DNA of 63,806 bases, filler included, from Conidiobolus incongruus B7586 (Eukaryota): NCBI GenBank assembly GCA_000697335.1. It is 8 parts of 8 records of this genome, joined end to end, with 100 filler letters (N's around TTAATTAATTAA, not from the genome) between each part and the next. Parts side by side here need not be neighbours in the genome. Positions count along the whole stretch, not along the records: positions 27,700 to 29,344 come from JNEM01006130.1; positions 29,445 to 47,535 come from JNEM01006131.1; positions 47,636 to 53,452 come from JNEM01006132.1; positions 53,553 to 60,419 come from JNEM01006134.1; positions 60,520 to 62,305 come from JNEM01006135.1; positions 62,406 to 63,806 come from JNEM01006152.1; 2 more parts are not named here. One strand, written 5' to 3'. The translations under genes and the position numbers were made by a program. Positions within the stretch are counted from its first letter, which is position 1, and each line of letters begins with the position of its first letter. Shown here piece after piece: positions 27,790-63,806 of the stretch. Under the pieces are notes generated by a model, which was not told the origin of the DNA, searched no databases, and saw nothing but the letters and a program-made list of their open reading frames with translations.

Positions 27790-29344
27790 CACTAACCTAC
27801 AAAAATGAGTCATATAATCAAAAATATATATATTTTAATTAATAACTAAAATAAATATATATATTAGATTACTTAAAACTATAATATATAATTAAGATAT
27901 ATTATTTAATAATAAATAAATATATTTAGATATATTTAGTAAACTATTAGCAAAAATATTAACCCTTAATATTTAACTAAGATAAGTTATAAATTTGTGG
28001 GTTTTGGAGATAAAGGGATATATTTAATAATATATAACCATATCTTTTTTATCTCTTTGTTATTATTTTATATAATATTTTATAAATATACTAAATTTTT
28101 TTATTAATATTATTATACTTAAATCCCTCTCTAAAAAAATTTACTTGTGTATCAATTAACTTTATAAAGAAGGTAAATTAACCAATGATATTGCTAGAAT
28201 TATTAGTGTTAGCTAGTCTACTATAGTTAAAGTTATTAAGAATAACAATAACGAAACATTTAAACTTAAACTTAAATATGTTAGAATTATAGATAAACAT
28301 GATAAAAAGTATATTTATAGGTTAATTAGTATAGGTAAATATAATACTACTGTAGTAATATAGCAAGAATTGTGAAACTATATAAAAATATTAATTAGCA
28401 CTAATATTATTATATGTGTTTTATATTAGCATAGATACTACTTACACTTTAAGAAAAAACACCCCTAATTAAAGAAATCCCATTATAAAACTAGGTGGGA
28501 GTTTAAATATTATCATTAATATTAAATTAAAACTAATTAGAGTAAAGTTATTTAGTTTAATAAAACAAAAATATACTTTAGTAGATTTGATAGAAAAGCT
28601 AGATGTTTTAGAAAAGATGTAAAATTACTTTATAACTATTATGTTAATTCTACCCAAAAATACAATAATAGGTTAATTATTATTTAAAGATATATATTAT
28701 CTTTAGGTATAAAATATCTTTGTAAAGTTAATAAAGGAATTAATATTAAGATATTCTAAATTATTCTAAATAATAAATTAAAAAAAACTATTAAATAATA
28801 TAGGTTAAATAAATCTAATGTTATTTTCTAGTAAGATAATATTTTTTGCTATATTATAACTTTTATTACTAAATAGTTTAAAAATAACAAGATAATAGTT
28901 ATAAAGTAGCTTCTTTAATTTTTTAACTTTAATTTAATTAAACATTTTTAGGATTAGTTAAAAAAAGCTATTAAAGTTTTCCCTTTAGTAAAAAATTTAA
29001 ATTAACTTTAAAAATATATTCAAGAAGTATAGAACAAAATTAACTTTTTTTAGTATAAGAAGTTAGTTGATTCTATACCCTATAAACTTAAAGAAGTTAG
29101 AAAAGCTAAAGGTAAATATATTAAGTTTTGATTTTTTTTATCATCAAAAATCTATAAATTTATAACTTATCTTAGGTAAAATTTAAAGGTTTATATTTTA
29201 GCTAATTAATAGCTAAATATCATCATTTAATGATATATATAATTAATAAATATAATAGATTTTAATTATTTAATTTAAGTTTATTTTATTAAATATTAAT
29301 TAAGTTATTAGTAAAAATATAAGTATTTTTAATTTTAAACTTAT
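27790..29344 (+). mobile_element. Tc1-type (DD34E) DNA transposon copy A, hypermutated, right end cut by linker
   Basis: TA|CACTAACCTACAAAAATGAGTCA terminus; ghost ORF ~28116-29131. TAG AGT AAA GTT ATT TAG TTT AAT AAA ACA AAA reverts by transitions to WSKVIWSDETK. Exactly 34 codons lie between D (28835) and E (28940). Ends DS(M)P...KAKG(G)Y(T)KF-stop. Confidence 0.9.
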
Positions 29345-29444
29345 NNNNNNNNNNNNNNNNNNNNNNNNNNNNNNNNNNNNNNNNNNNNTTAATTAATTAA
29401 NNNNNNNNNNNNNNNNNNNNNNNNNNNNNNNNNNNNNNNNNNNN
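29345..29444. other. Assembly linker
   Basis: 44N-TTAATTAATTAA-44N. Confidence 0.98.
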
Positions 29445-30839
29445 TAGTAAAACTTAACTATAAATTTTTTATAATTTATAAACAACTTATAATAATAAAA
29501 TTTTATTTAAATTAACTATTTATTGCTTGGTGAATTACTTTAAAATTAAGAAAAAAACTATTTAAAACTTGTTAAAATTTAAAAAACTAATTTTAACTAT
29601 TATTTTTTTAATTATTAATAAAATGAAAAAATATATTGAAAAGCATCTTTTTATTTTAATTGAAGAATTATTTAAATATTTTAATATTAGTTATATAAGT
29701 ATTACATATATATTAATGTTTAAATTTAAATTAATAAATAAAAATATAAAAAAAGTACCATATAATTTAACTAGAGTTTAGAAAAAAGTTAAAATAGTTA
29801 TTATTAAATAAAACTTACTAAAATATTACTAGAAACTTAAGCACTTATAATAAATAATTATAATTAATGAATTTTAAATTTTTATAAATAATCTTTTATT
29901 AAAACATAAATCAAAATAATAAATTAAATTAAATTAACCTTTTTTTCAAATTTTTAAATAAACATTTTATTAATAAACTAATATTAAATATTATAATAGA
30001 TTATAATGGTATATGTTACTTTTATTTAATTTTTAAAGGGAAATCAATTAATAATAAGCTTTATATTGCTTTTTTAAATAAAAGTATTTTTAATTAATTT
30101 TCTCAATATAATTTAAGAAAACCTATTATTTTACCTGATAATTATAAAATATATAAATTTAAAATTATAAAAAACTCTCTAATTAAGTATAACTAGAAAA
30201 AACCACTACATCTAGTATATTGTTTAAATTATAACTTATGTAATTATAATTGCTTTAAGTATTTAAAAAACTAGCTTGTAGAAAAGAAAATTTCTATAGG
30301 AAAATATAATTAGTTTGTAAAACATCAAATTTTAATCTTTAATAAAAAGAATTATTTTTTAAGTGTTAAGAGTTTGTTAAAAATATAGCAAAAAGTTATT
30401 AATAATAAAAGAAACTATTAAATTCATATTATATATTTATTTTTATATATCATATATCCAAATGTTTTTATTTTCAATCACAAAAAATTCCCATTATTTA
30501 AATTGCAGAGTAATAATATCAATTATAATGAATTAATTATCTTTTCTTCAAAACTAAATAATACTATATTTTAATAGAACTATTAATTTTGAAATTAAAT
30601 ATTAGTTGATATAATTAGCTATATTAAAATTATATCTTTCCAGTCAAGTAAATCAATAATAACTTAGTTAATAATAATTTAAAACTATTTTATTATATGA
30701 AAATTTTTATAATTGATTCAATTAAAAAATTGAACTTGATCAAAATCTTTTTTTCGATGAAATCTTTATAATTATTATCAAATACCAAAAGGAAATATCT
30801 AAAATTATATGAATAAACTATAATTGATAGTCAATTGTT

Positions 30840-33766
30840 AACACATCTAAATCTCTAGGGTGATGAAGTTTCCTTGTAAGTTGGTCTGTCTTCAATACGG
30901 CAATAGAGTGCCAATTTGATAGAGTCGAATTCCACAGTGGTAGAAAGTGGTCAGGAGCTGGTCAATCAGTTGAAATTCCATAGCATGTGTACAAATTTGC
31001 CTTGATGTTATGCATATTGCAAAAAGTTGCCAGTGTTAAGGAAGATCGCTTTATGATTGGGGTCCAAGCAGTACAAGAATCAACAGTTGAAACTATTACA
31101 AAGATTGGAATTGACATTGTGAATGTCATTTAACTAATTCAAATTGGGAATATTTAAAAAAGCTCTTGCAATTGCATTTTTTCCACATTTGAGTGGGTCA
31201 CTATATATTAGTTCATTACTCAGTTTCATAATTTCGGAATTGATTGTATAATGATATCGTATCTTTGTACTGGGTCGTGATGAGCTTCTACAAGTATCAT
31301 TGCCATTGAAGTATTGGCAGCATCTTTTTGCAACGTTGAATCTCTGATTAATGGCAGTACTTGGTAATAATCCCCAACTAAAAAAACTTGTTCGAAGACA
31401 TATGATTAATACAATACGGTTTAATGGCTTCGTACACTTTGCTGAGCGATCCAAGTAGTAAGAATTGCGTCGCATTTAATACTGGCAACTTGAGTGGGAT
31501 GATATCGAGTGACTAATGCGCGTATATCATGTTATTAATATCGCTTAATATTACCATTTGACTAAATACTTAACAAAATGCGCAATCGCCGTAGTTTTAC
31601 CTGTTCCTGGCATACTTAAGATCACAGTGTAATCGTCATTATTGATAGTGTCTTCACATGCCATATCCTGGTCCCAATTCAAGCAACCTTGGGAGTTGAA
31701 CTTAATACGGTCACGATCGTCCTAACCCAATTTTCCTCTATGAAGTCTAGGAGACTTTAAATTCATGATCAATTCTCTTAACCTGATCGCCTGCGGAGCC
31801 ATATCAGTCATCAACTTGACCAAATTTCTTCCCGAAAATTTTACACCCTGTTCTTACCCATGCTTGTCAATTTGAAACAATTCTTCCCAAAAAATTAGAA
31901 TTTATCGATTGGATAAACCCTTGAAAACTTTCAAATTTAAGAAATATTTGATTTTTAAAATCTTTAAAAGTATGGCATTTTTTAATGGTGATCAGAATGC
32001 TTAACTTAGGGAGATTTTGATACTGATTACACTAAATTGTAGAAGGTAGCCGACAGCTATACTGAATATTCCAGATCCGGTCGAGTTAATCACGTGTTCA
32101 CCGATCTCGATATAAGTTGTAGGCAGTGGACCCTTGGAGGAAGTAGGATACGACACGTTTGGCATATCGGAACCAACACAAAACAGGAGACTATTCGATT
32201 TCGAAGTGTCAAAACTCCTGTTCAATTCCTTGAATTCAACAGCGTTGACGAAATCGGAAGAATCCAAGGAGTTAAATAGAATCATGCTCCTCAAGCACTT
32301 GCCCTTCCTCTCCAAAACTTTGGAGCTTTTGGACCAGATCTCCTTCTTATAAATTTTAATATGTTTTTCTTCAATGTTAAAAATTCGATCTACTCGGGAT
32401 AGAATTGGAGTTAGTGTGGGATTACGTAGAATGTGATTTAATTATAGATTCGAAATCTTGCAAAGTGGACCGCGTTTCAATTTCCAAAGTCTTGCGATGT
32501 AGCATATAGCTCAGAAGTTGATTACACTTGGAGCATATGCTACTGTTCCTGATTATTGGAGGCAGTGGTAGTTCTCTCTCTCCCACAAATTGGAGGTTAA
32601 TTTATTCCTAGTTTGAATCAAAGCCACCAGGTTGTCCCTAGTGGAATGAATTCTGACTAATTGTTCCTCCTCTTGCGCATTCAGTATAAATATGAGACAC
32701 AGTTGGGCATTTTAATCGTACTTTTCACTGAAAACTACTTAATCCAGAATTATTAGAAAATAATAATATAGGTTGAAGCTAACTTTCCCAGTTTTAAATT
32801 CTAAGGCACCAATATACACTTTGCTACGGTATGATTTATTGGTTTGAATTGTAATTCAACTATTAAATGAACATTAACCTTAATATTACCTTTTTGAGAA
32901 CATATCATATCCACTGAGGATTTAGTTTCAGACATTAAGAACCCTCGAGTTCATCATTAGGATTTAAATATTTTTGATTGAATCTTGCAAATTGTTTTGA
33001 TTTGATATTATTTGTGATACAAGTTTTGATTCATGTTTGTAATTTGAATTTCCCTTCTAAAATATCTTCAACGATGGATTCTTCCATGCGGTTGACACTA
33101 TAGAATTTATTACTGTAAATATGGCATAATTGGTGTTTTTGCAATTCATAAGGCCATCGATAAAATCATTCCTCATAAGACAGAGTTCTAACAACTCATG
33201 CAACAATTGACCAGGAATTAGTGGTTCTGTGTAGGGACTTACTAGTATAGATCTCTACTGAAGAATATTCATCCTAATATCACTGTTAGAAGTTGTTAAT
33301 GATACTGAATTGATCAGTTGATCAGTACCCATAATGTTGAGATTTTCCAAATCGTTGATGATACATTCATTACTATAGGATTTGCTGATGAAATTGGCAA
33401 TATTACCAACTTTTGCCATTGTGTAGTACTAGGACTCAAGTAAGTAAATGATATCGCTCATTTTTGTCAACTTATGTAATATTTTCAACTCCTTTTGAGG
33501 TTCCCAATACCCTCCTCCGCCACTCGCAGTGTTGTAGTAGTTTTCGGAATAACTTGAATCACCGTAAGTCTGAGGTAGGTGCCACTGTCTAGGTCAGGAG
33601 CGTTCTGAACTGGGAGCAATGATTGATTCGCTCCCATTTCTAATAGACTTAGATCTTCGATAGAAAATCCGGAAAACATATTGTCTATTTTGTTTCGTTC
33701 TGTGATATTGTCAACGTTTAAAGAAACAGGATTGCTAAAGTTTGAGGTATTATTGGGATTGTCCAT
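30840..33766 (-). pseudogene. DNA2: DNA2 nuclease/helicase pseudogene with many stops and frameshifts; limits approximate
   Basis: Collinear DNA2-like blocks: KGNIKVNV and GALEFKTG (nuclease, ~32790-32900); RLRELIMNLKSP; DDYTVILSMPGTGKTTAIA (Walker A, ~31585-31645); YHYTINSEIMKLSNELIYSDPLKCG; VSTVDS. Confidence 0.8.
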
Positions 33767-34627: not shown

Positions 34628-34699
34628 GACGTATTGGGGCGATGATAGCGAGTCTGACTTCAGAGCGGAAGGCTAAGAGTTCCAGTCTATCACTCATCT
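34628..34699 (+). pseudogene. tRNA-Trp-derived relic with TCA anticodon (pseudo-tRNA or SINE head)
   Basis: GACGTAT TG GGGC GATGATA GCGA G TCTGA CTTCAGA GCGGA AGGCT AAGAG TTCCAGT CTATC ACTCATC T aligns without gaps to the eukaryotic tRNA-Trp layout (..GTCTGACTCCAGATCAGAAGG..GTTC..). Acceptor, D and T stems are mispaired. Confidence 0.7.
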
Positions 34700-35696: not shown

Positions 35697-38600
35697 TTAA
35701 TCGTGGAAGTCTTTTCCATTTTTAACAGCTTTAACAATACCTTGACGAATGACGAAATCTCCAAACCTTTCTCCTTCTAGACGCTCTAGGGAGTATTGCT
35801 TGATCAGAGGTCGCAAAGTATCAAGGATCTGTTGCTCATCCACCGATTCTTTGTACAGTTTGGCTACGCGGTCACCGTAGAAGCCACCACCGAGGAAGAG
35901 ATTGTAGGTGTTAGGAGCTTTGCCAACGAGGGCAATTTCCGCGACGTAAGGACGAGAACAGCCGTTGGGGCAGCCGGACATACGGATCACGATGGAATCG
36001 TCCCGGAGGCCGCAGTCGAGGATGGTTTCGTCCAATTTGTCGATTAATTTGGGTAGGTAGCGTTCGGCTTCGGCCATTGCAAGACCACAAGTGGGTAAGG
36101 CAACGCAAGCCATGGAATTGAGACGAAGTTGGGAGAAGTCGACATTGGAGAGGTTGTAGCGATCCATCAATTGTTGGAGATGATCCTTATCCTCAGGCTT
36201 GACATTCTTAATAATCAAATTCTGATTAGGAGTGAGGAGGAAAATATCCTTGTGAGCATTGGCAATCTCTCTGAGACCTGTCTTCCAAGGTCTTCCAGGA
36301 GTATCTCTAATACGACCATTCTCAAGATAGAGATTATAGTGCCATAAGCCATCGGAGTCGGTTTGCCATCCGAATCTATCTCCGTTGTCTTTGAATTCGA
36401 AAGATCTAGCGGGCTGGAGGGGATATCCGAGTCTGGTGGCGAGCTCTTCTTTGAATTTTTCTACCCCCATATCTTCAATAGTGTACTTTAGACGAGCATG
36501 CTTACGGTTGAGACGTTCACCAAAATCGCGTTGGATGAGCATGACCTTTTCACCAACATCGATAGCTTGTTCTGGGGTACAGAATCCGAGGACATCAGCC
36601 AATCTGGGATATGTTTTCTTATTATTGTGGGTAGCACCCATACCACCGCCAACAGTAACATTGTAACCAACAACTTTATCATTTTCAATAATGGCAATAT
36701 AACCCAAGCAGTGAGCGCGAACGTCAACGTCATTACTAGGGGGAATAGCAATAGCAATCTTGAACTTTCTAGGCAAATAGCTGGGACCGTAAAGGGGTTC
36801 AACGTCTTGTACAGCTTGTCCAGCAACCATCTTGTCATCCAACCAAATTTCGTGGTAAGAATTGGTGCGAGGGAGTAAGTGGGCGTCCAAAGCCAAAGAG
36901 AATTTGAAAATTTCGTCATGGATGGATTTCTTGACAGGGACTGAACTAACATGATGTTACGGTTGACATCACCACAAGCAGCTAAGGTGGTCATGAGTGC
37001 CTTGTTGACACCTTGGATAGTCTTTCTTAAATTCTTCTTGAGGATACCGTGGAATTGAAGGGTTTGTCTGGTTGTGATCTTGAGACCGCCGTCGCAGTAT
37101 TCTTCGGCGAGTTTGTCCAGGGCGAGCCATTGAGCGGTAGTGAAAACCCCCGCACACCCTCTCATACGAGCCATAAATGAGTATGCGAGTTCGAGGCCGC
37201 GTTCAATACGTTCTTCTCTGATATCTCTGTCGTCTTGTTGGTAGATGCCGTGGAATTTGGTGAGTTTAGTATCTCTATCGCTGAGAGCACCAGTGGATTC
37301 GTCGCGAAGACCTTCAGCAATAGTACCTCTCATGAAATTACTTTGAAGCTTATTCTCGTGATCGCTCAAAGTGGTAGGCAAAGAGAATTGCTCTGAAGCT
37401 CCAGAGATAACTTCAGCTCCAAGAGCTTTCCAGAGTTCGGGCTCCCAAATTTGGAATTGGGTTTCAAAACCATCGGCATCTTGATCGTCTCCAAGACCAA
37501 CGTCCACGATAGGTTGAGCGTTTAATGAGATGAGCTTCTTGTGGATATCTTTACCAGGTTTGTTGTAGAAGATAGCATCTTCTTCCTTGGGCCAGTAGTG
37601 ACTATCACCAAGACCGAATACTGCAAATCTCAAATTGGGTAAAGTAGTTTCAGAAGCAGATAGAGACTTCCAGAATTCTTTAGCATTGACCGGGAACTCA
37701 CCTTGGCCAGCGGTTGATACGACGAAGAGTAAGAGAGATTCGTGCTGAATGTCTTCAACTGGGACTTCATTAGCGGGATGGCAGCGAGATGAGAAGCCAC
37801 GGATCTTGGCACCGTGATCAAGGCGACGAGCAACTTCTTCGGCTCTACCACCATCAGAACCGTATAAGACAACAAGAGGAGGACCATTCAATCCATTCAA
37901 AAGCTTGTTCAAAGCATCCTTAGCATCCTGAACCTTAGTTTCAATTTGGTGTCTGGCATTGATCTGCTGAGAACCGATTTGAGCCTTGGGAATCTGAGCA
38001 ATCTTTCGAGATACAGCACTCAAATGAGAGTTTCTGTCTAAAAAGTCTTGGATTTCCTTTCTAATTGAGCTTGAAAAGAGTTCAAATTGGTCTTCTCCAT
38101 TCTCTTCGATGGATGGCACCCAACGGTAGATGGGCCACTTGCCGGAATCAATAGCGATCTTGGTTTGTTGCAAAGTGACGACATCTGAAAGGGAGTCCTT
38201 ATCGCTACCGGTGATGACAGGCAAATACCCTAATACAACGGAAGGTCCTTTGAATTGATTGGCTTCCAAAATGAATTTGAAGGCTTGGGAGTAAGAATGG
38301 TTGATAGCGCTAGAAGCGACGAATACGTCACCAAAGTTCATGGCGTAGAGACCAAGATCTTTCTTCCTAGGTTGTGTGAGATCTCTGGTACGGGATTCGT
38401 TCAAAGCTTCAGTTTCCAGAACCAAAATGTTGATATCTTCACCTGAGCTGATGACGCTTTGCAAACCACTGTTGCTCAAATCATAAGACCATTCGTCAGA
38501 ACCGACGAGCCAGTAAGAAGGTTTGGTGAATAAATAGGATTGAGAGTTGATTTCTTCAAGTTCTGGATTACCATCGATGGATGATTGGGCGAAGAGTTCA

Positions 38601-39820
38601 ATTAAGGAGTCTGCGGCAGTCTTGCTCTTTTCAAAGTCATCCTTGACCAAGAGCCAGTTGGTCAATCCATTTCTCAACTCTGAACTAATATTAAGCTTAG
38701 AATTCAAAGATACCTTGGTAACGAGTTCAGTGAATTGTTGTCTCCTTTTGATTTGAGCCAAAATTGTACCATAACCGTATTCGGGACGATTGTAGGTGGA
38801 TTGACCATAGATGGAAGGGGATCCAATTTGATTAGCAATAACTAACTGAGAGTCGAAAGCTTGGTTAAGAAGAGAAATATATGGAATATCATTTGGGAAG
38901 GTTTGGTTAGAGGCAGTAGCGCACACTGGAGAGGTTTTGGGGATGATATCTTCTTTGACTACGAGTCTGACTTTGGAAGCCAATTCAGGCACATTGAGAA
39001 GATCTAAATACAAAGGAGCTACTACTTTAGTCTTCCAGCTCCATAAATCAAGTCTTTCGATAGAGCTAGAGAGCACAGATTGGAGTTGGCTAGCATTGAA
39101 TGGTTGATATACTCTGACTCTGACATCAGCCTGAGGCAATGAGGTAAAGATGTTGAAACCAATGGATAATTGATCCACGTCAATTGGGTTAGACAATTCG
39201 AAGGACTTGTAGTTGGAAGATCTTAGTTGATTGATATGTTCCAAAATATCTTCAATTGTAGTCGTGCTGGGCTTGAATTCCTTAGCGTTTTGAATCAATT
39301 GGTCGATAGAAACTTGTTCTAAAGGGGCAAGGTTGGACCTTTGATATACCAAATACAGGTCAAACACATGGATGAAAATGGAATTATTATGTAAAGCGGC
39401 AGTATGAGCTAGTAAAGCCATATCGTTAATTTCATCAGCATTATTGGAAAATATGGCACCAATTCCCAAATCTTTGAAGGATAATAAAGTTGTCAATCTT
39501 TCCAAATTGCTAGAAATATCGTGACGATCAATGGCGACATGCAAAACTGCAGGCTTCTTAGATTCGGTTAAAACGAATAGAGAGGGTAAAAACTGTGTGA
39601 TTTGGCTAGCTTGGATGAATAATGTGGAAACTTCAGTATTTTCCTTTTCTTTTGAATGGTAGTTCAAAAACGGAGCGACAGGATCTCGATCGCTTTTAAG
39701 GGTAACATAATTCAATGATTGTGACGTTTTTTGAGGAATTAACCCAGTAGTAAATATTTTGTTAGTGAATTGGGATGCCAATTGAAAGAGTTGGTTGATT
39801 ACAGAGTTATTATCTGACAT
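35697..39820 (-). CDS. MET5: Assimilatory sulfite reductase beta subunit (PFOR-like, flavodoxin and siroheme/4Fe-4S domains); intronless, 1-nt frameshift at 36948-36949
   Basis: Flavodoxin VLYGSDGG..AE and FAVFGLGDSHY; TKFHGIYQQDDRD, ACGDVNRN, YLPRKFKIA, CVALPTCG, SGCPNGC. The two long ORFs join by one missing base. Confidence 0.93.
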
Positions 39821-40198
39821 CCTATATAATGTATCGAATTTATCAACTACTGAATATATGAATAAATAGTTGATAATAATTACCTTATATTATATAATTA
39901 ATTGATAAAAATAGAGCTAGGAATAAAAAATGTATAAATATGGAGTTGATTATATATAACAAATTAAATAATTAAAAATCCTATAGCATTAAATATTATT
40001 GACAACTTTTTACAATCATAATTCCACTATTAAGGGTATTCATTTAGTTTAAATAGTATTGACAATTTTCTACAGATTGATTAGATCATCAGAATTCTGA
40101 TTAATTTTATCAAATTAAATTATGAATTTATTTGATTGAATCAGAATAGTTGAAAAGCTCGCAAACTTTAGGCAAATTCAAGCAATTTTCAATTGGAA

Positions 40199-44561: not shown

Positions 44562-47535
44562 ATTAAGATTAACTTGAACCATTTCTTCCAATTATGAATA
44601 TAATTATAATTAATAAACAATTTAGAATAAAATAAATTAATTAAATAACAATTAAAATCTATTTTGATTAAAGTTTCATTCAATGAAATAGAGTTCAAAT
44701 GCTACCATATTGTCAAGTATTTATATCATAATTTAAAACTGAAAAAATTTCAATTAAATCATTTACCACATATTCCTGAGGCTAAAATTGTTACAAGTAC
44801 TAAGTTTAAGTGTAGCAAAAAATATCCGTTGAATTAGAATCAAATTTGAAAATTTCAAAATTTTGTTAGATTGATTAACTGTTAGTTTTTGTTAATCTTG
44901 GATTAAATTACCCGATTTGACTTAATGTTTCAAATTGTTGTGATTTTGAATCAAGCTATTAATTTAATATTAGTGATTTAGTTAAATACATAACAATATA
45001 TATTCTTTATTATTAATTTGGGTTATTTTAGTCTAATTATTATATAATTCTTTTATTTGTTGAAAAGTTTAATTTAATCAAATAATGAAGAGAGAATAAA
45101 CATACACCACATATAATCAATATCCCTACGAAGGTGTTGTTTGATCTTAACATTTATAGTTTAGTTTCAATCCTCCAATCTCCGCTAATATTATATTTTT
45201 AATTATCAAAAAGTAGAATTTAAGTTCTTCAACTAAAACCCAGGGTAGAACAATATTGATTAATAATATTCGGTTGATTTACTAAGTTATACTAACTATA
45301 AAGATAATTTTAATAAGAATTGATTAGCACGTTGCATGTATAATATTAATATCTAATTCGAGATTAAGAGGTATGTAATATTTATTTTGATATATATATA
45401 TAACAATTTTGAATGCATCATCAATACACTAAGAACTGACGTTAACAATTCCTTGTAGTAAATTCAACTTAATAACTAGTTATAAATGAGTTTATTTAAA
45501 TATATCATAAAACTTATTTACCAAATAAAATCCAAATCCAAAAATTTTCATTTTTAACAATGATTTAATTAACTTATGGTTACGCCTACCATATTTTTAT
45601 ATTTGATATATTAGTTGAATAATGTGGCGGATCTCAATCAATGCTTATAAAATTTTATATCTGCTTAAAATAACACTCTAATTGTATTAAATTAATTATT
45701 TACATTGATTCTCTATCCAAAATATAAGTTAAATTTTGTATTAATATATTTCATCATATCTCAAACGTAAGAATGTTTATTTAACTATTTTAAAGATATA
45801 ATAAATATTCTCAATTCATATTTTTTATTACTTATAAAGTCCTATTATTTAATAAGATAATTCAATAGTCTTTATATTCAAAATTAATAAATCAATTAGA
45901 TTAATTCCATATATGCATTTCTATGACAAGATCAGCTAATTAAATTTATTATATTCTGAAAATAACTCTGAGTTTTGATTTGATAATTTAACCAATATTA
46001 TTTCTAATTCATATTGACTTTCTTGGTTCATAATTAAATTGTACACTTTGTTCTCTGTTAAATTTTAATCAAACCTTATGTAATTGACTGAACAAACTAT
46101 AAAAACCAAAGATTAACAAAAAGAGGAGTTTTTTTGATAATTTGCTATAAATTTAAATAATCAAGTTTAAGAAATAAAGTCAAAATGTTAAAAAACACTA
46201 TTAATAAATTAATTTATTAAAGTTTATTATAAGTTCTTTTTGAAAAATAATTTATATTTATAAAACATAATAAAAACATAATAAAATATTTATATTAGAA
46301 TACTTAGGATTTTGATAACTTTGAAATATTAAATTGATCAAATTAATATTAATTATTTTTTACCAATATAATATTATCTTGATATAATTAATATAAAATT
46401 TATTTCTCATATTATTTTATTGGGCAAAATAATAATAATAATAAAGATAAATCAAAATTTATTAATATTATTTAATACTACCATAATAACAATTGGAAGA
46501 AAATATAAAACGGACTTATGTAATATGTATTATTATTAATACTTGTAAAAATTATTAATTATAATAATTTACAATATTTATGTAGAAGAAATATTCTTAA
46601 TTGATTAATATCTTTAATCAGATAAAAAAATAAATCAAAATTTTAGAAAATATTCACTTAACAAGGTTGTATATTTAAAAAACTTGTAATCTTATAACTA
46701 GTTTAAATATTATATTAAGTTAAATAATACAACTATCGAAATATTGATTTGAAATATATAATACTACGGAAATATAGCAATAACAATTATTACAAATCTT
46801 ATATATGTTCAAAAAAATATAAAGATAAAAATAGTCTATTATTAATAAGAAATTATCTTATTATATACTCATAAATATATATCTATTTAACCAAATTTAT
46901 TTTTAGATTATTTTTATACTATTCATTATTAATTTTGAAATAAATATTTGTAAATTTATTTTAATAGTTAGTCGTGGGTTCAATTTTATATAAGATATAT
47001 ATTTTAAAGTATTAGATATAATCTATTTTCAGGATTTATTTATCAATTTTCATATAAAACATGGTTATATCCTTTATTTTATATTGATTTGCTTGTTTTT
47101 ATAGTCAGAGAAAGAATTGATTTAATATATATTAATATAATCATTTTATATATTATTTTATATTATTTATATATAATAATATATTAAAAGATTATTTAAT
47201 TTTAAGTTATATATATTCTGCTTTTATGACTTTGCTTGACTAAATATCTTAATAACTATATTCTTATTTTGTAAAAATATTATAACTTGCAAAGTTAAGC
47301 TATAAAAAAATAATAACTCATATATTCTGCTAAAAATGAGATTATTCTTAATTAAATTAACTTAGACTAGGGTATAATTAAAGTATATTATTTGATTTTA
47401 ATAAATTATATTTATTTATATTTAATTTATTATTGGATAATAATTTAAAACTTAAAATTTAATAATAATAAGCTATAAACTAATATGTTTATAAACTAAT
47501 TAGGTATATAAAATAAACATTATTTAAATTATTTT

Positions 47536-47635: not shown

Positions 47636-49930
47636 TTAATTAAATTAATAATTTAATATTTTATTATTATATATATATATATATTTAATTAAATATATAA
47701 TAGCTTTTCTATATAAATTAACAAAGCTTAGCCTAATATTAATATTAGTTTTCCTTTATAAAGGTTTAAGGATTATTAGTTCATTTATTCCAAATTAATC
47801 AAAAAAAAGTAATATTAATAGTTAGCTTTTTTTATTTATAAATAAAAATTTTTTATTTAAAAAAACTCAGAGAAATAAAGGGAGTTAAAATTTATAAAAT
47901 TAAACCTATTGATTTATATTATTCTTAATAAATAAAATTATTCAAAATGTATTTAAATTTATAAAATAATTTAATTAATGATTAATAATAAGGTTAGTAT
48001 TATCTATTATAAATTACATATACATTATTTTAAATTTTAAAATTTTTTTATTATTAATTTATAAAATTTAAAAATTAAATTAGATTATCAATATATAAAT
48101 ATATATTAAAAATTTTATAATAATGTAATAATAGTGCTAAAAATATAATATAATTAAAGATTAATTAAGTTTTTTAAATTTTTCAATAATATAAATAAAT
48201 CATAAAACTATTTTAAAAAAATTTAAATTAGTTTATCTTTATTAATTATATAATTAATCTTGTTAATATTAATAAGTTTAATAATATATTTACGTTCATA
48301 AACTGAATAATTCAAAGGAATATTGATTTACTATTAATTTTAATTTATCAATTAATAAGAGATATAAATTAATAAAAATATCTAGCTTATTAGATTTTAC
48401 TATTGTTTCTATCTTCTTATAACATATAATTTGGTGTAGTTTAAATATTAGGTTAATTATTATCAAGGTAATTATATAAATAATAATTATTATTGGTTTT
48501 ATAATAATAAAAACAATTATTTTTTTAATATAAAAATATTTAAATAAGAATTATATTAAAGCTTTTAATAGTTGATCAGTAGGTATAATATATGAATAAG
48601 TGTTATTAATAACTATAATATATAAGTTATAGTTTATAAATATACAATTAATATAATAATAATTAACTTTATTATAGCAATGTTTATATTAATTAAAATA
48701 TAATAAGAATGATTATATTTATTAAGATATATAGTAAAATTAATTATATTTTGAAATAAGTTTTATTATGGCTTTATTTATTAATATTTATCATAATATA
48801 GATAAAAAATAAATTATTTGAAAAATACATATTATAATTGAATTTTTGTTTTAAAAGTAATTGATATTTATAATGATGAATTTGTTCAATAAATTTTTAA
48901 ATAAATTGTTTATAAACAAGCTTTTTAATTTGCTTTATAAAAAGATAATATTGTTAAGAAAATAATATACTTGGTGTAATTTTTTGATAAGATCTTTAAA
49001 GGTTTAAATGTTTTTGCTAATGTATTTGCTTAAAGCTATTTAAGCATAAATTTGTTAGTGATGTTTAAATTCATTTTATATATTTCTGGAAAAAAATAAA
49101 ATCTATTAATAATTTTTCTTTTGCATTATAGCTGGTTGTGTTAAAATAATTGTTTAGCATATCTTTATAGTTTTGAAAAATATTAATTTTATTGTAATTG
49201 TGGAGTTTTTTGTGATATAGTTTCAATATTAAGGTTTTATGTTTATTAGTAGTTATTTGAATGACAATATTGTTGTTAATGTTTATGGCTAATATATTAT
49301 GCATATATGTGGGTATAGAGTTAAGGAAACTAATTTTAACTAGTTAAACTATTAATAAACACTTGAATTTAAGATAATTTAAGTTCTTGGTATTTTTAGT
49401 GTTAATGTGAGGATCAAGTGTTTGTTGCTACCAAATAACAAGGTTAATGTGAACAAGTAGATTTAATATAAACAATATGAAAAGTCCCTTGTTTATTTGG
49501 CAATGTTTCCCATTTTTATATGTAAAAGTTGATAATAGTTGGAAGATAAAATAAGATAAAGTAGAGAAAGAAAATAAGACTGATGGCATCATGATTTCTG
49601 TGATGACAACAAAATGATCCAATTCATAATAGTTACTTATTAAAAACATTAATAAATATTATTTTAAATATCGTATACCAAATTTTGACAATTCAATTTC
49701 TGTCAAACTGAAATTCAAAAGTGTATTTTAAACCAATTATAGGTTGATGGAAATGGACTAATATCATTTTATGTATATTCATATTACCTGAAATTTATTT
49801 TAGAGAAAATTTAAAGTCAATATATATATATATATATATTCAGTGTAAAATAACAACAATATAACAAAAATGTGATTAAATTTCCAAAACAATACTCAAA
49901 TTTACTAAAAAATTTATTTGAAAAATAAAA

Positions 49931-50680: not shown

Positions 50681-51924
50681 ATCAATTATAATTATCAATC
50701 TAATTTGTTTAAACTGAATGATATCCCTATTTATACTAATTACTCGCATTAACTCCCCTATATTTAACTTTTTTGAATAAATAATATCAGCAAAATTTAG
50801 ATTCAATTCCCGATTTAATTGGTTAATCTTTCACAAATTTATGCTATTCTATATTTATTTATTTTAGAACATCAAGTTATGAGAATTATTTTCTTTTTTT
50901 GGTATACAAATAATATAAATTCCAATATTTATATTTATATTAGCTGAGAAATATAGAGAAATTAATAATTTAGGAGATTTGGTCAAATAGGGTACGACAT
51001 CTAATTTTAAAACAAATTTTTTTTATAATTAAGAGATAAAAAATGCACAGCCTATATTGAGTGAATAGTTTTCTAAATATAGGTTCAAAAGAATGCTTTA
51101 TGGTTGTAGTGAAATGTAATAGCAGTGTATTACTTGTACGTCAGATAGATCAGGATTTTACATCCCTGAGCAAGATATATATTAATACCAGAATTGGATT
51201 AGTTTTAAAAATGATCTCAATTTAAATAATTAGTAAACATTACATCATATCTCTGACAACAAAAATTAAGATTTGTTATTTTTTTGATCTGGATTTGGTA
51301 CGCTATATATGAGATTTCACTTTAATAATTATAAAAACAACTTCTTAGTTATATTTAAAATATTTAAAGAATCTTAAATTGGAAATTATATGATTAACTT
51401 CTATTAATTTATTATAATATTTTATATTCTAATTTATTACTTTAATTATTTAAGAAGTATATATGTCTTATTAACAATATTAACCTGATAATATTTTATG
51501 TTAAAAATATAATGCTACTTGGAAACATCCATTATATTATTAAAAAATTAGGGTTTCTATTGCTAAAGTATTGATATAAATTCTGATAAAAATATAAAAT
51601 ATTAATATTATATTTCAAATTTTAATTAATTTAATATTAAAAAACTTCAAATAATGATTATTAAAATGAAATAATTATATTATCAAAAATAAAACTTATC
51701 TTATAAAATAGAGGTAAAAAACATTCTATAAAGGATATATTCAATAATACCTGATATTTGAATTAATAAAAGGAGAATAATATTTTTTTAAAAATATTTA
51801 ATTTTAATAAAAAAGTTTTTTTTAAAATATAATTGAATATAACTTCCAGATATAAATAATTTAAAATTAATATATTTTTTAATTATTATTTGCTTTTCGT
51901 TATATTTTAAAAACTTCTTATATT

Positions 51925-52060
51925 TGATATTATTTTTATATTTTAAAAAATTATTTTAATTAAAGAATCTTTTATAAAGTAAAATAAAAGTTTAAATATT
52001 ATTATTAAAGATTAAATAAAACTTATTAAAATAAGGTAATTTAGTTTAATAAAACAAATA
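51925..52060 (+). mobile_element. Older Tc1 transposase fragment interrupted by copy B; left limit approximate
   Basis: TAA AAT AAG GTA ATT TAG TTT AAT AAA ACA AA reverts to WNKVIWSDETK. Homologous to 28440-28570; ends at the TA before copy B's TIR. Confidence 0.65.
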
Positions 52061-53452
52061 CACTAACCTATAAAAGTGAGTTATAAAATCAAAAAAATTT
52101 ATATTTTTACTAATAACTTGATTAATATTTAATAAAATAAACCTAAATTAAATAATTAAAATCTATTATATTTATTAATTATATATATCATTAAATGATG
52201 ATATTTAGCTATTAATTAGTTAAAATATAATCCCTTAAATTTTACCTAGGGTGAGTTATAAATTTATATGTTTTTGGTGATAAAAAAAATTGAAATCTAG
52301 TATATCTATCTTTAGCTTTTCTAATTTCTTTAAGTTTATAAGGTATAGAATCAATTAACTTCTTATATTAAGAAGGGTTAATCTTATTCTATATTTCTTA
52401 AATATATTTTTAAAATTAATCTAAATCTTTTACTAAAGGGAAAAATTTAATAGCTTTTTTTAACTGAACTTAAAGATATTTAATTAAATTAAGGTTAGGA
52501 GATTAAAGAAACTATTTCATAACTATTATCTTGTTATTTTTAAGTTATTTGGTAGTAAAAGCTCTAGTATAGCAAGAGGTATTATCTTGCTTGAAAATAA
52601 TATCAGATTTATTTAACTTATACTATTCAATGGTTTTTTTCAATTCATTGTTTAGAATACTTTAGTATATTTCAACATTAATTCCATTATTAACTTTATA
52701 AAAATACCCTATATTTAAAAACAATATATATCCCTAAATAATAATTAACCTATGATTATACTTTTAAGTAAAATTAACATAATAGTTATATAGTAATTCT
52801 GTATTTTTTCTAAAGCATTTAACCTTTCTATCAAATCCATTAAGATATATTTTTGCTTTATTAGACTAAATAACCTTACTTTAATTAGTTTTAGTTTAAT
52901 ATTAATAATGATATTTAAACTCCTGCCTAGTTTTAAAATAGGATTTCTTTAATTAAAGGTGTTTTTTCTTAAAATATAAGCAGTATCTATGCTAATATAA
53001 AGTATATATAATAATATTAGTGTTAACTAATATTCTTGTATAGTTTTATAATTCCTGCTATATTTCTACAATAGTACTATAATTACCTATATTAACTAAT
53101 CTATAGATATATTTTTTATTATATTCATCTATAATTTTAGCATATTTAAGTTTAAGTTTAAATGTTTCTTTATTGCTATTCTTAATAGTTTTAACTATAA
53201 TAAACTAGCTAACATTAGTAATTCTAGTAATATCATAAGTTAATTTACCTTCTTTATAAAGTTAATTAATACACAAGTAGATTTTTTTAGAGAGGGATTT
53301 AGGTATAATAATACTAATAAAAAAAATTTAATATATTTATAAAATATTATAAAAATAATAGCAAAGAAAGAAAAAAGATATGGTTATATATTATTAAATA
53401 TATTGTTTATTCTTAAAAACTTGTAAATTTATAACTTATCTTGGTTAAATAT
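52061..53452 (-). mobile_element. Tc1 copy B, hypermutated, cut by linker
   Basis: TA|CACTAACCTATAAAAGTGAGTTATAAAATC terminus; reverse-complement homology to copy A throughout; direct repeat GTGAGTTATAAA at 52076 and 52251. Confidence 0.9.
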
Positions 53453-56030: not shown

Positions 56031-58612
56031 TTAAACATTCAAATTGCTTAACAAATCTACTAACTTATCAACCTTGTTGTCAGTGTCTTGATTTGCCATC
56101 TCCGCCAACATAATCAGTTTCTTGATACCAATTGGTAAGTCGTTCAACTGTTCATTAGCATTCAATGTGTTGGTCAGGGCGTTTAATTCGTTGGGGGTGA
56201 AATGATCCAAACTCTATAGTCAAATATTAGTTACAAGCTATGAGCATTATCTGTGGTTGATTTACCTTGACAACATTGTGAATTTGCTTACTGCCAATGA
56301 CGTTGGGAACGTAGAGATCCGCATCGAAACAGTCCAACATACTCATTTGGTCCAGGACGCCGCGGTTGGTACATGTGGAGATGAGGAGAAGACGATGATT
56401 CTTAGGAGGTCTCTTTTTGAGTAAGACCATTAAGGCTTGGAGGACTGTGTTAGAGAATCTGGGACCAATAGGAACCCAATCTATATATATATATGAGTAT
56501 TTTATATAAATCAAATGGAATCAATTTATATTACCTAACAATCTTTCAATATTATCAATGACAATGACCGATAGTGGCGATTTATAAGAATCCACAAAAA
56601 CTTTGTTAATGGCTGCGGTTTTAGAACTTTCGTTCATGCCCACCATAGTTTCAGGGGATATCAACTTAATGAAAGGGAAACTACTGCCCATGGCAATAGT
56701 GGCAGCGAGTGCAGATTTACCAGCTCCAGAAGGTCCATGCAACAGGACACTGACCAATGGAGTGGATTGAGAAGTCTTCACCTGTTCGACGAATAGTTGA
56801 CCATCATTTAAGATACGCTCAACGTGGTATTCAAATGGAATGATGTTGTTTTGGACTAGGAGTTGGAGCTCGTTGTCGCTGACACCGAATGCGGGTTTGA
56901 CTTCTTCTAAAGCGTTGAGGAAATCGTCGCGAAGCACTTTCATGTTTTCGACATCGTCACTCACTCCTGCCATGGTACCAACTTTGACGTGACGGTTGAA
57001 TGCGTAGGATGATGCGCTTTTCACCAAACCTAACAAACTTATCAGAATTATAATACTATAATAATGGATATTGATAAAAATTACCTTCAATCTCAGCACC
57101 ACTAAAATTCTTAGTCAATTGAGCCAATTCGTGAAGATCGACATCGGGACCCAGCACGTCGTTACTTCTCATCTTAGAGGTATGAATTTGAATAATTTGG
57201 TAACGTCCATGCTCGTCAGGCAAACTTATTTCAACTTGGACTTCGAGACGTCCAGGACGTAATAAGGCTTCATCGATCATATCCAATCTATTAGTCATAC
57301 CAATTACTAAAATATTGTTGAGCTGTTCGACACCGTCCATCTTGGACAACAATTGATTTACAACAGAATCGCCAACTCCTGTTCCTGAAGATTGAGAACC
57401 TCTCTGCTTACAAATGGCGTCCAATTCATCAAAGATAATGATATGAAGTGCACTTTCATCTCCCTTTTCCTTGTATTCCTTTTCGGCATCTGCGAACAGT
57501 TTACGAATGTTTTCTTCAGATTGACCTACGTATTTATTCAAAATTTCGGGTCCGTTGACAATCTTGGGTTCCTTAGCATTCAACATCTTGCCAATTTGTC
57601 GAGCCATTAAAGTTTTACCAGTACCTGGGGGACCGTGCAACAGGATACCTCTCACGTGTTTAATTCCTAGCTTTTCAATCAAAGTTGGAGGGAAGATACG
57701 CGAAGCGAAAGCTCTTCTAAAAATTGCCGAGAATTCAGTATCTAACCCACCGATGCCCATATCCTCAAATTTGAAATTGGGTTGAATTATATTGGCTGCT
57801 GCAGATCTCGTCTTCTGACCCTTTAACTTAATAGGATTATCACCAGCTTTGACGAAGTTGATACTGGTTTGGTCCATGAGCACTCCGCTGTGGATTTGTG
57901 GATTGTTTCTTGCACTGGTGGTATTGGATAGGGATTGGAGATCAACAACATTGAGGTTTAAGACTTTGGCATGTAAGTTGATGCCGTGAAATTCAAATAC
58001 CATAATCTATTAAAAAATTCATCATAAATAAATTAAAAATATATTGATAAAATTAAATTACTTGTCCAATACTAAATATTTGGTCTCTAAAATTCTATAA
58101 GTTAAAATCAGTAAATGTTTAAATGTAGTAATATCAATATAAATAATTAATACTTGAATAAAAATTGAACTCATTTCCTGAACGTCAAATACTTCATTAG
58201 TTTCTACAACTTTTTTCAAAAAAGAAACCTAAATCAAAATAAATAAAATATATTCAAATAGAAAAAGAATATAATCTACTTCAAATTCTATTGTTGATAA
58301 ATAACAATTGCCATTATTATAATCTTCAGGGCGATAGGGTTGTAAACTGACTTGTTGATTAAGTGATAAATAAGCCCATCTACGTTGAATCATAGATGTA
58401 CCAATATTTCCCAGAGGGACGGAAGCATCACGTCTAAACTTAAATTAAATTTCATATGGTGTAAATTATGACAATATTTACTTGACAGTAAAAATAAAAG
58501 CGTTATCCATAATAACGTATTTGGCGTTAGGCAAGTCATTGGGGTTGATAATTGCACAATTTGTTAGTGCTAAGCTATCTTTAGGACACTTTATTACTTG
58601 AAAAACTGACAT
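56031..58612 (-). CDS. SEC18: Vesicle-fusing AAA+ ATPase NSF/Sec18, multi-exon
   Basis: [54 protein letters not shown], second Walker [18 protein letters not shown]. Confidence 0.96.
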
Positions 58613-59581: not shown

Positions 59582-60419
59582 ATCTTCCTATAAAATTAAA
59601 AAATAGTTTGTAATAAAGATAAAAATAAAATAAAACACAGAATTGTAGATATTATAATATAATTTATCAGTATTCTACATTATTAGTAGATATTACAAAA
59701 TTTCTATATATAGAAATAATAATTAATAAATTTCAAATATCAAAATTTTTTTTAAATTTATAATTTTAAATAATTAACTTAGTAATTATTTAATAGCTTT
59801 ATTATTTTAATTGATTAGTTCAATTATCAAATATCTTAATTATATCTTTATATTATTTAAATTTGTCAAATTTGAGAGAAAAAATTATTACCAATTCAAT
59901 ATTTTTATTTGGTTAAAATTATATCCAATTATTAAGTTAATAAAGATTATATATTATGACTAGTATTTATATCAATTAAAAATTAATAAATTCACTTTTA
60001 TTGCTTTTAAGTATTAAAAATAATGTATCTTTATAGAAATCAAATATATTAAATTCTATTTTGTTTGATTATCTAATTTTTATTAGATATATAATATTAA
60101 AAATTTAAATTTTTTGATTAATTAAATGAATTTTGATTATATTCATCAGATTAATATTATTTTATAAATTAAATAAAAATAATCTATAAAATAATAATAT
60201 AAGATTTTTATTATTAATATTTTTAGTCCCAAGAATTAAAAGAAATATTCAATATATATAATAATACTTAAAGTTTATCTTATTTCTTTAATTAAATTAT
60301 TATATAAATAGATCATTATTAATATGGAAATTAAAAAATAACTAATTTTTTAATTTTTGATCTTTCAAATATATTATATTTTTTGAAAAATTATATATAT
60401 ATATATATATAAATATTTT

Positions 60420-60519
60420 NNNNNNNNNNNNNNNNNNNNNNNNNNNNNNNNNNNNNNNNNNNNTTAATTAATTAANNNNNNNNNNNNNNNNNNNNNNNNN
60501 NNNNNNNNNNNNNNNNNNN
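60420..60519. other. Assembly linker
   Basis: 44N-TTAATTAATTAA-44N. Confidence 0.98.
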
Positions 60520-60621
60520 TTTCAAATATTATATTTTTAATTTAAAATGCTATTTTTCAAAAAAATACAAATTTATAATTAATTATATTAATTTGATATT
60601 ATAATTTATTTAAATATTATA

Positions 60622-62190
60622 TTCTAATCTATAAAAATAAGTCATAGAATCAAAAATACTTATATTTTTACTAATAACTTGATTAATATTTAATAAAATT
60701 AACATAGATTAAATAATTAAAATCTATTATATTTATTAATAATATAAATCATTAAATGATGATATATAGTTATTAATTGGTTAATATATCAATCCTTAAA
60801 TTTTACCTAAAATATATTATAAATTTGTAGGTTTTTAGTGATAAAAAAATAAAACTTAGTATATCTACCTTTAGCTTTTCTAATTTCTTTAAGTTTGTGG
60901 GGTATAGAATCAACTAACTTTTTATATTAAGAAGGGTTAATCTTGTTCTATGCTTCTTAAATATATTCTTAAAGCTGATCTAAATTTTTTATTAGTGAAA
61001 AAGTTTTAATAGCTTTTTTAAACTAATTTTAAAGATATTCAATTAGGTTAAAGTTAAGAAATTAAAAAAGCTACTTTATAATTATTATTTTGTTATTTTT
61101 AAGCTATTTGGTAGTAGAAGTTATAATATAATAAGAAACATTATTTTATTAGAAAATAATATTAAATTTATTTAACCTATATCATTTAATAATTTTTTTT
61201 AATTTATTATTTAGAATATTTTAATATATCTCAATATTAATTCCCCTATTAACTTTACAAAGATATTTTATATCTAAAGATAATATTTATCCCTAAATAA
61301 TAATTAACCTATTATTATATTTTGGGGTAAAATTAATATGATGGTTATAAAGTAATTTTGTATTTTTTTTAAAATATCTAGTTTTTTTATTAGATCTATT
61401 AAAATATATTTTTGTTTTATTAAATTAAATAACTCTACTCTAATCAGTTTTAATTTAATATTAGTGATAATATTTAAACTTTTGTTTAACTTTATGATAG
61501 GATTTTTTTAGTTAGGGATGTTTTTTCTTAAAATATAAGTGGTATCTATGCTAATATTAAATATATATAATAGTGTTAGTGCTAATTAATATTCTTATAT
61601 AGTTTTATAATTCTTGTTATATTTTTACAATAATACTACATTTACTTGTATTAACTAACCTATATATATACTTCTTATTATATTTATTTATAATCTTAAT
61701 ATACTTAAGTTTAAGTTTAAATATATTTTAATTACTATTCTTAATAGCTTTAACTATAGTAAACTAGCTAACACTAGTAATTCTAATAATATTATAAGTT
61801 GATTTATCTTCTTTATAAAGTTGATTGATATATAAATGAATTTTTTTAAAAAGGGATTTAGGTATAATAATACTAATAGAAAAATTTAATATATCTGTAA
61901 AATATTATATAAAATAATTACAAAAAGAGAAAAATAATATGGTTATATATTGTTAAATATATCCCTTTATCTTAAAAACTTGTAAATTTATAACTTACTT
62001 TAGTTAAATTTTGAGAGTTAATATTTTTGCAAATAATTTACTAATTATAGCTAAATATATTTATTTTTTATCAAATAATATATCTTAATTATATATTATA
62101 GTTTTAGGTAATCTAATATATATAATTGTTTTAATTATTAATTAATATATATATATTTTTGATTTTATGACTCACTTTTGTAAGTCAGTA
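60622..62190 (-). mobile_element. Tc1 copy C, full length (1569 bp), hypermutated
   Basis: Both TIRs present, with TA at 60620-60621 and 62191-62192. Right terminus reads TACTGACTTACAAAAGTGAGTCATAAAATC on the minus strand; the transposase ghost matches copy A. Confidence 0.9.
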
Positions 62191-62305
62191 TATAATATTT
62201 CTATAAGGTATTGATAGTTTGTAATAATTAAAAATTATTTAATTAATAATCACTAACTTATTTTCATTATTATTAAATTTTATCATTCAAATAATATTGA
62301 AATAA

Positions 62306-62405
62306 NNNNNNNNNNNNNNNNNNNNNNNNNNNNNNNNNNNNNNNNNNNNTTAATTAATTAANNNNNNNNNNNNNNNNNNNNNNNNNNNNNNNNNNNNNNN
62401 NNNNN
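62306..62405. other. Assembly linker
   Basis: 44N-TTAATTAATTAA-44N. Confidence 0.98.
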
Positions 62406-63806
62406 TGTTAATTCTTAATCAAATTAATTTAAATTAAAATATATAATAAATTTATATTATTTATTTATAATTAAGTATATTTGATTTAATTATATTAACT
62501 TTTAGTTAATATATTAATATTTAAATTTTACCTAAGATGAATTATAAATTTGTGTGTTTTAGTTATGGAAAGAAAATTAAAACTTAATATATCTATCTTT
62601 TACTTTCTTAACTTCTTTAAATTTATAAGGTATAGAGTTAATTAACTTCTTATATTAAAAAGGATTAATTTTGTTTTAAGCTTCTTGAATATATTCCCAA
62701 AGCTCATTTAAATTTTTTACTAGTAGAAAAACTTTAATAATTTTTTTAACTAATCTTCAAGATAATTAATTAGATTAAGGTTAAAAATTTAAAAAAGCTA
62801 CTTTATAACTATTATTTTATTATTTTTAAACTATTTAGTAGTAGAAATAATAATATAACAAAGGGTATTATCTTATTGGAAAATAACATCTGATTTATTT
62901 AATCTATATTATTTAATAATTTTTTTAAATTTATTATTTAGAATATTTTAATATATTTTAATATTAATTCCCTTATTAACTCTATAAAAATACCTTATAT
63001 TAGAAAATAACATATATACTTAAACTATAATTAACCTATCATTATATTTTTAGGTTGAAATAACATAATAGTTACAAAGTATTTTTTGTCTTTTCTAAAA
63101 TATCTAGCTTTTTTATTAAATCTACTAAGGTATATTTTTGTTTTATTAAATTAAACAACCTTACTCTAATTAATTTTAGTTTAACTTTAGTGGTAATATT
63201 TAAACTCCCACCTAGCTTTATAATAAAACTTCTTTAATTAAAGGTGTTTTTTCTTAAGATATAAGTGGTATCTATTATAATATAAACTATATATAATAGT
63301 ATTAGTATTAACTAATAATCTTATATAGTTTTGTAATTTTTTCTATACTTTTACAGTAATATTACACTTACCTATATTAACTAACCTATAAATATACTTT
63401 TCATTATATTTATCTATAATCTTAATATACTTAAGTTTAAGTTTAAATATATCTTTACCATAATTTTTAATAACTTTAGTTATAATAGACTAACTAACAC
63501 TAGTAATTCCAATAATCTTATAAATTGATTTACCTTTACTATAAAGTTGATTAATATATAAGTGAATTTTTTTAAAGAGGGATTTAGGTATTTTAATACT
63601 AATATTATTTAAAATAATAATTTACAATAATAATATTAGTATATATATATATATATAATTTAATAAAAAAAATTTAAGTAATTTTTATTTTATATACTCT
63701 TTTAACTCTTAAACCTATAAATTTATAACTCACCCTATTTAAAATTTAAGATTTGATATATTAACCAATAATATATTAAATATAATTAAATATAACTTAT
63801 TATAAT
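62406..63806 (-). mobile_element. Tc1 copy D, hypermutated, both ends truncated
   Basis: Collinear with copies B and C. Minus strand GAT GTT ATT TTC CAA TAA GAT AAT ACC CTT TGT TAT reads DVIFQ(Q)DNT(P)C(H). Confidence 0.88.

Follow-up and report, generated by a model that had tools for sequence, protein, structure and literature searches.

Repeat-targeted C-to-T mutation of Tc1 transposon copies in Conidiobolus, a lineage counted as lacking such mutation

Four copies of one DD34E Tc1 transposon were analysed in a stretch of 63,806 nucleotides from the Conidiobolus incongruus B7586 assembly GCA_000697335.1 (hereafter the window). Copy A lies on the plus strand and copies B, C and D on the minus strand; they show 79-87% identity by blastn, and their GC content is 15-18%. 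The initial annotation had located these copies and described a heavy loss of GC in them resembling repeat-induced point mutation (RIP). Both the coordinates and the GC loss were correct. The features of the element are given below, in which P0123 is an intact relative of 338 amino acids (aa).

27790..29344, plus strand: Tc1 copy A, almost complete, with the terminal repeat at the 3' end lost to a gap; TA before the 5' end; 25 in-frame stops
28115..29131, plus strand: inactivated transposase frame of copy A, aligning to P0123 without indels; profile search E 3.9e-65; tblastn 35% over 331 aa
28559..28942, plus strand: DD34E positions in copy A at 28559 (now AAT), 28835 (GAT) and 28940 (now AAA), corresponding to P0123 residues 149, 241 and 276
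47280..47535, plus strand: fifth Tc1 copy, a 5' fragment cut by a gap; 78% to the 5' part of copy D; RIP index +0.48; no CpG
52061..53452, minus strand: Tc1 copy B, truncated by a gap at the 5' end, TA at the 3' end; tblastn E 2e-47
60622..62190, minus strand: full-length Tc1 copy C with TA at either end; its terminal inverted repeats are long and imperfect; coding-strand G>A excess
62406..63806, minus strand: Tc1 copy D, probable sister subfamily, both ends cut; two 1-bp deletions

The window contains seven gaps, at 10247, 27600, 29345, 47536, 53453, 60420 and 62306, each consisting of 44 N, 12 bases and 44 N. A six-frame stop linker was present inside both gaps whose letters were inspected, and adjacency across gaps is not assured. 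Gaps truncate copy A at the 3' end, copy B at the 5' end and copy D at the 3' end, and the end of the window also truncates copy D. Terminal inverted repeats with a TA target duplication were observed at both ends of copy C, at the 5' end of copy A and at the 3' end of copy B. The repeats of copy C include an inner copy of the terminal motif, and presumably resemble Tc1 ends of the inverted repeat/direct repeat type.

All four copies are dead, with 19-26 stops each. The profile search listed above was made with copies A, B and C, using X at the stops, and P0123 was collinear with them without indels; when copy A was used in a word-seeded protein search, no match was returned. P0123 carries the HTH_Tnp_Tc3_2 and DDE_3 domains, and the Pfam scores of the four copies by themselves were weak. 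In the P0123 frame, 34 residues separate the second Asp (241) from the Glu (276). Copy A was said to keep the exact DD34E spacing, and this holds for the spacing and not for the catalytic codons, as the first Asp reads AAT in all four copies and the Glu is kept in one. The start codon of copy A is now ATA. The cluster to which P0123 belongs shares with the window copies the collinear 338-aa frame, the two domains, the TA sites and the terminal inverted repeats, and differs in that P0123 is intact. The 14 records of this cluster lie on contigs roughly 1.2 kb long; because the cluster holds an intact relative, the Tc1 family presumably is, or was until recently, active in some organism.

Copy D showed 26 private transversions, 13 of which fall at third positions, together with diverged ends, and it probably represents a different, sister subfamily as judged from the sequence. 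We also considered that copy D was merely older and had reached a plateau. This was dropped, because its surplus of transversions is concentrated at third positions and in the ends.

Subsequently, the direction of the changes was examined. P0123 served as the outgroup, and the 72 residues that 70% or more of 25 additional homologs have in common gave 288 codons in the four copies. Among these codons, 130 were unchanged and 142 were explained by C>T or G>A only, while none was explained by T>C or A>G only; the remaining 16 need a transversion. When the threshold was set at 50%, the counts were 219 versus 5 (shuffled means, 63 and 10). At ten Trp positions, the 40 codons read TAG (19), TAA (18), TGA (1), TGG (1) and GAA (1). 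The loss affected both strands, at 46-65% strand by strand. Thus the directional C:G>T:A change on both strands described in the initial annotation was confirmed against an intact relative. The stretch quoted there, derived from WPPQSPDLNPIEHLW, is present and starts at 28907, and all of the copy-specific ancestral codons that it quoted were found in the sequence.

The changes were both extensive and nearly pure. In the transposase frame, transitions and transversions numbered 136 and 15 between A and B, 144 and 14 between A and C, and 164 and 19 between B and C, that is, 9-10 transitions per transversion among these three copies; pairs involving D gave about 4:1. The identities of the open reading frames were 81-86%. 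At approximately 390 inferred ancestral C/G sites, 50-57% were lost per copy (0.69-0.84 per site after correction), and transversions in 1020 bases numbered only 5, 9 and 6 in copies A, B and C (0.5-0.9%). C>T accordingly exceeded each single transversion type by about 150-300-fold in A-C and 65-fold in D. Polarisation to the GC-maximal base from the four copies alone underestimates loss, and outgroup-guided counts were used instead. Since these counts favour fully lost, outgroup-fixed sites, we make no claim for a weak 5' pyrimidine trend.

Damage inherited from a single master copy was also considered. The losses common to exactly two copies were distributed evenly over the six pairs (16, 10, 14, 10, 14 and 21; p 0.31), as expected from the earlier proposal that each copy mutated independently after insertion. 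Furthermore, the 252 variable transition columns were even over the codon positions (93/85/74). From these two observations, the damage post-dates insertion and was not filtered by selection. On the other side, 73 of the 374 fully scored ancestral C/G sites were lost in all four copies. This is largely expected from near-saturation at CpA and CpG, and some shared history or outgroup divergence is possible. An assembly artefact would fit the fact that three copies end at gaps.

The damage was spread evenly along the element, and both strands were hit about equally in three of the four copies. Copy C was asymmetric, with G>A at 72 of 112 sites and C>T at 48 of 99 (permutation p 0.014), and no such asymmetry was observed among A, B and D (p 0.56). 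Clustering of changes within 60 bp was not found (p 0.33).

The context of the mutated cytosine was then determined at residue-fixed sites, using outgroup-fixed dinucleotides. Loss amounted to 50/56 for CpG, 91/108 for CpA, 54/104 for CpT and 61/144 for CpC; with the site as the unit, the values were 0.79, 0.71, 0.47 and 0.36, respectively. CpA was lost more often than CpT (p 7e-10) and CpC (p 2e-13), and did not differ from CpG (p 0.22). The broad context suggested before therefore stood as to CpA, which ranks above CpT and CpC, and needed amendment as to CpG, which was absent from its list and is lost as strongly as CpA. The initial annotation had also named loss confined to CpG as an ordinary alternative. 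CpG-only decay was rejected on the CpA count.

The base on the 3' side influenced loss (0.36-0.79) more than that on the 5' side (0.47-0.61). This bears on editing of the element by a cytidine deaminase, which would account for a change from C to T only and for the inclusion of non-CpG contexts. APOBEC/AID enzymes, however, are governed mainly by the 5' base, both strands are hit here, and a cut-and-paste transposon has no single-stranded copy stage. We regard such editing as very improbable.

Passive decay deserves somewhat more weight. In this explanation, transposons methylated at CG and non-CG sites lose 5-methylcytosine (5mC) by slow spontaneous deamination, with no dedicated mutator. The strongest depletion being at CpG and the even damage along the element and over the strands of three copies are consistent with it, as is the CpG poverty of a second, older repeat family (described below). 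However, C>T at methylated CpG in humans exceeds transversions by about 60-fold, and the excess in copies A-C is several times that ratio; moreover, CpA was lost almost as fast as CpG and copy C is strand-biased. Purely passive decay is accordingly considered improbable. In Zymoseptoria, the site-wise C>T rate attributed to Dim2 is reported not to follow the site-wise 5mC level (PMC8016269).

We also asked whether the signal was confined to repeats, using the following control features. The window was divided into 400-bp windows, from which those with N, those overlapping a copy edge and those with GC above 22% were excluded; the second repeat family was counted apart.

30820..33590, minus strand: probable DNA2 pseudogene, used as a control; Pfam Dna2 match interrupted by in-frame stops and frame changes; GC 35.5%; RIP index -0.52
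14560..18100, strand not assigned: inverted pair of thioesterase-like host paralogs, used as a control; 298-bp identical block at 14659-14956 and 17715-18012; not hypermutated
51311..52060, strand not assigned: flank of copy B, possible spreading; GC falling 15, 12, 9%; low CpA

The composite RIP index was positive in all 10 Tc1 windows (mean +0.78) and in 5 of the 47 non-repeat windows with GC of at most 22% (mean -0.51; p 9e-7). Counted on both strands, CA:CT was 152:417 in the copies versus 1575:1220 in unique AT-rich DNA (p 5e-39), and CG:GC was 2:68 versus 216:326. Confinement to repeats, as claimed in the initial annotation, was thus borne out within one window of 64 kb. The DNA2 relic, proposed there for comparison, was unaffected and keeps an ordinary content of CpA and CpG. 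A homolog search for this relic returned none, so that its use as a control depends on its composition and its in-frame stops, and the relic is presumed to be single-copy.

These results also bear on general AT-biased drift, for which the similar AT-richness of unique non-coding DNA could speak (mean GC, 18% versus 17% in the copies). A GC loss no greater than neutral drift had been raised as grounds against RIP; the index, the CA:CT ratio and the DNA2 relic, with its retained GC and CpG, reject such drift within the window. Drift, a master copy and an assembly artefact together are given hardly any probability, considering also the even sharing of losses, the even codon positions and the recurrence of the same transitions in contigs of two runs (see below).

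The second repeat family (9754-10246, 22152-23318, 26793-27584, 29462-30546 and 47700-48400) has 70-80% identity, GC of 11-13%, few CpG and about 0.2-1.2 transitions per transversion. Its windows gave a positive RIP index in 7 of 13, and a six-frame Pfam scan of two copies returned no match. In the 750 bp beside copy B, CA:CT was 29:46, lower than the ratio of unique AT-rich DNA given above (p 0.003); this flank possibly reflects spreading of the mutation, or an unrecognised relic.

The thioesterase-like paralogs are a control of another kind. Their 298-bp identical block sits in the 5' part of genes otherwise about 70-75% identical, and a third such paralog lies near 20000-20700. With its copies 2.8 kb apart, the block keeps 37 CpA/TpG and 4 CpG sites, and the diverged part of the pair showed 68 transitions and 56 transversions. 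We attached no probability to the block because it was chosen for being identical. The pair argues against a mutator that strikes every duplication; conversion, assembly collapse or selection could account for it instead, and the block itself may reflect a recent gene conversion or an assembly collapse. Homology itself as the trigger, a further suggestion of the initial annotation, is so far unsupported, given this host pair without such change in the window.

The Tc1 family is large, and data for it were obtained from contigs of two runs of one sample, probably the window's own. Contig pieces aligned to copy A numbered 36,112 in run X3 and 28,142 in run X1, which is not a copy number. Transitions made up 269 of 284 family-wide variant places in X3 and 268 of 283 in X1, with some differences uncounted by the tool. 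From runs X5 and X7, 0 and 2 short pieces, respectively, aligned to copy A, which is evidence neither way. The family-wide context was examined at 22 places of a 126-bp stretch, with shares weighted by depth and restricted to contigs resembling copy B by 80% or more. At the clearest sites, it matched the context found in the four copies. The two G bases of the Trp265 codon differed: retention was 17-22% of the depth for the CpA-context G and 93-94% for the CpC-context G. More broadly, CpA-context bases of Trp265, Gln268 and Met263 were kept in 17-35%, and CpC-context bases of Trp265, Pro266 and Pro270 in 70-94%. Two of the CpT sites were kept in 60-90%.

How the mutation arises can be proposed as follows. 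After insertion, the Tc1 copies acquired C>T changes throughout, on either strand and predominantly at CpA and CpG. The repeats would be recognised through chromatin or small RNA and not through pairing alone, and the lesion would be made by a DIM-2-type cytosine methyltransferase on heterochromatin-marked repeats. Conversion to T would be assisted by an enzyme and not be purely spontaneous, and the process is likely to be independent of RID. We somewhat favour such a heterochromatin-guided, DIM-2-type mutator acting on transposons, perhaps beside a CpG maintenance enzyme. The direction, the confinement to repeats, the context, the independence of the copies and the absence of selection were observed directly. 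In Zymoseptoria, repeats undergo mitotic C>T at CpA under the action of Dim2 (PMC8016269), C5 methyltransferases are reported from entomophthoralean fungi (PMC11105155), and RID homologs are reported from Dikarya only (PMC5751038). The sparing of the host paralogs was counted for this reading. The flank of copy B, low in GC and CpA and possibly affected by spreading, was counted for a DIM-2-like mutator as well, since DIM-2-mediated mutation in Neurospora is known to spread into single-copy DNA (10.1101/115501).

Several points weigh against this proposal. Enzyme, methylation and timing are putative throughout, and Zoopagomycota have been described as 5mC-poor (PMC11258239). CpG, the most depleted context here, is spared by Zymoseptoria Dim2, and a second enzyme of CpG type may be needed. 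Family-wide, two further CpT sites and one CpC site (3 of the 22 places) were kept in just 4-15% and were thus as depleted as CpA, which means that the context is not purely dinucleotide. The asymmetry of copy C is better explained by a few bouts resembling RIP than by mutation at a steady pace, although it concerns a single copy and no clustering accompanies it. Finally, the paralog control is weak, because the block may be conversion or collapse and selection would purge mutated genes.

True RIP was also weighed. In this explanation, a RID analogue or DIM-2 would mutate duplications in bursts, once pairing before meiosis (when zygospores form) had revealed them. The transition excess among A-C, the CpA preference and the asymmetry of copy C agree with it. 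The identities of the copies lie near the limit of RIP, which is roughly 80%. The repeat table for C. coronatus in PMC12543289 lists, for 1-kb repeats, none at 95-100% identity and 555 at 80-95%. However, the host paralogs keep their CpA/TpG and CpG sites, CpG is lost as much as CpA, copies A, B and D lack asymmetry, and RID is unreported outside Dikarya in the source cited above. Hence true RIP seems possible and rather unlikely.

The observed pattern was compared with known systems. RIP of Neurospora crassa and other Pezizomycotina, which in Neurospora proceeds by a RID pathway and a DIM-2/heterochromatin pathway (10.1101/115501), shares with the window the directional C:G>T:A change on both strands, confinement to repeats and a transition-to-transversion ratio near 10, as well as CpA over CpT and CpC, TAG and TAA stops from Trp and Gln codons, and a positive composite index. 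It differs in that here CpG loss is as strong as CpA loss, so that CpA is not the single most favoured context; in that host duplicates in the window are spared; and in that the host is a zoopagomycete. The mitotic Dim2 mutation of Zymoseptoria tritici is likewise confined to transposons and nearly pure C>T with strong CpA loss, and needs no sexual cycle, whereas it places more than 98% of C>T at CpA while sparing CpG (PMC8016269); in the window, 79-89% of CpG and 36-52% of CpT/CpC were lost. The TpCpG hypermutation described as RIP-like in Pucciniomycotina (PMC3318451) resembles the present case in the near-total CpG loss in transposons outside Pezizomycotina. The window goes beyond it and beyond CG-type decay, with loss of 72-84% of CpA in addition to CpT/CpC. 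Taken together, the outcome is RIP-like and yet not classifiable as RIP, because the preference for CpA does not extend over CpG, and trigger, timing and enzyme are all hypothetical.

As to novelty, the first claim that such a process had not been established in these fungi was overstated if taken as complete. Index-based RIP signals, with caveats stated, are already published for Entomophthorales (24.2% in Zoophthora radicans and 2.4% in Entomophthora muscae; PMC11105155). They share with the window the order of fungi and the kind of composite index. As far as its available text goes, that report gives window indices without copy alignments, polarity, context or a C. coronatus value, and the present evidence is at the level of alignments. 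A kingdom-wide screen of 2025 described RIP-like signatures as unique to ascomycetes and scored C. coronatus as 'no_rip' (PMC12543289). Our full-text literature searches found no alignment-level report for Conidiobolus. A study by Clutterbuck in 2017, whose title points to decay of CG type in basidiomycetes and 'some lower fungi', may cover Conidiobolus.

The host was placed by the following gene.

56118..58006, minus strand: SEC18 exons, used for host placement; 93% and 85% to KXN72063.1

The exon at 57059-58006 was 93% identical to a protein cluster with Conidiobolus coronatus KXN72063.1, other best matches being at most 83%; the second exon gave the lower value. Judged from this identity, the host is a Conidiobolus (Entomophthoromycotina, Zoopagomycota) distinct from the C. 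coronatus reference, and not an ascomycete. This agrees with the early-diverging fungus expected at the outset, and sets aside a RIP-competent ascomycete as the source.

Other features were noted in the window. The sulfite reductase beta subunit (35697-39889, minus strand) has two overlapping frames at about 36490-36956, owing to an intron or a one-base assembly error. The stretch 48500-49500 is 1 kb without CpG (0 versus 30 GpC counts) with strong GC skew and normal CpA, and is possibly another relic. At 42144-44591 (minus strand) lies an 815-aa low-complexity protein, probably secreted, with His/Glu/Ala repeats and no Pfam match.

The window provides polarised, alignment-level evidence of hypermutation of RIP strength that includes CpA, in a close relative of the 'no_rip' C. 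coronatus. This repeat-targeted C-to-T mutation is a new variant, found in a lineage that a recent survey counted as lacking such mutation, and the host lies far outside the groups with accepted RIP. Screens based on k-mer enrichment of coding against non-coding DNA can miss the signal where unique non-coding DNA already has about 18% GC. It is a tentative suggestion, and an unlikely one at present, that genuine RIP, triggered by homology and aimed at CpA/CpG, operates in Conidiobolus in the absence of RID, and that current k-mer screens miss it in AT-rich genomes; if true, RIP predates the split of Zoopagomycota and Dikarya or arose twice. A methyltransferase-driven mutator of repeats would be either much older than Dikarya or evolved again, and either origin would make the beginnings of RIP testable in a culturable fungus.

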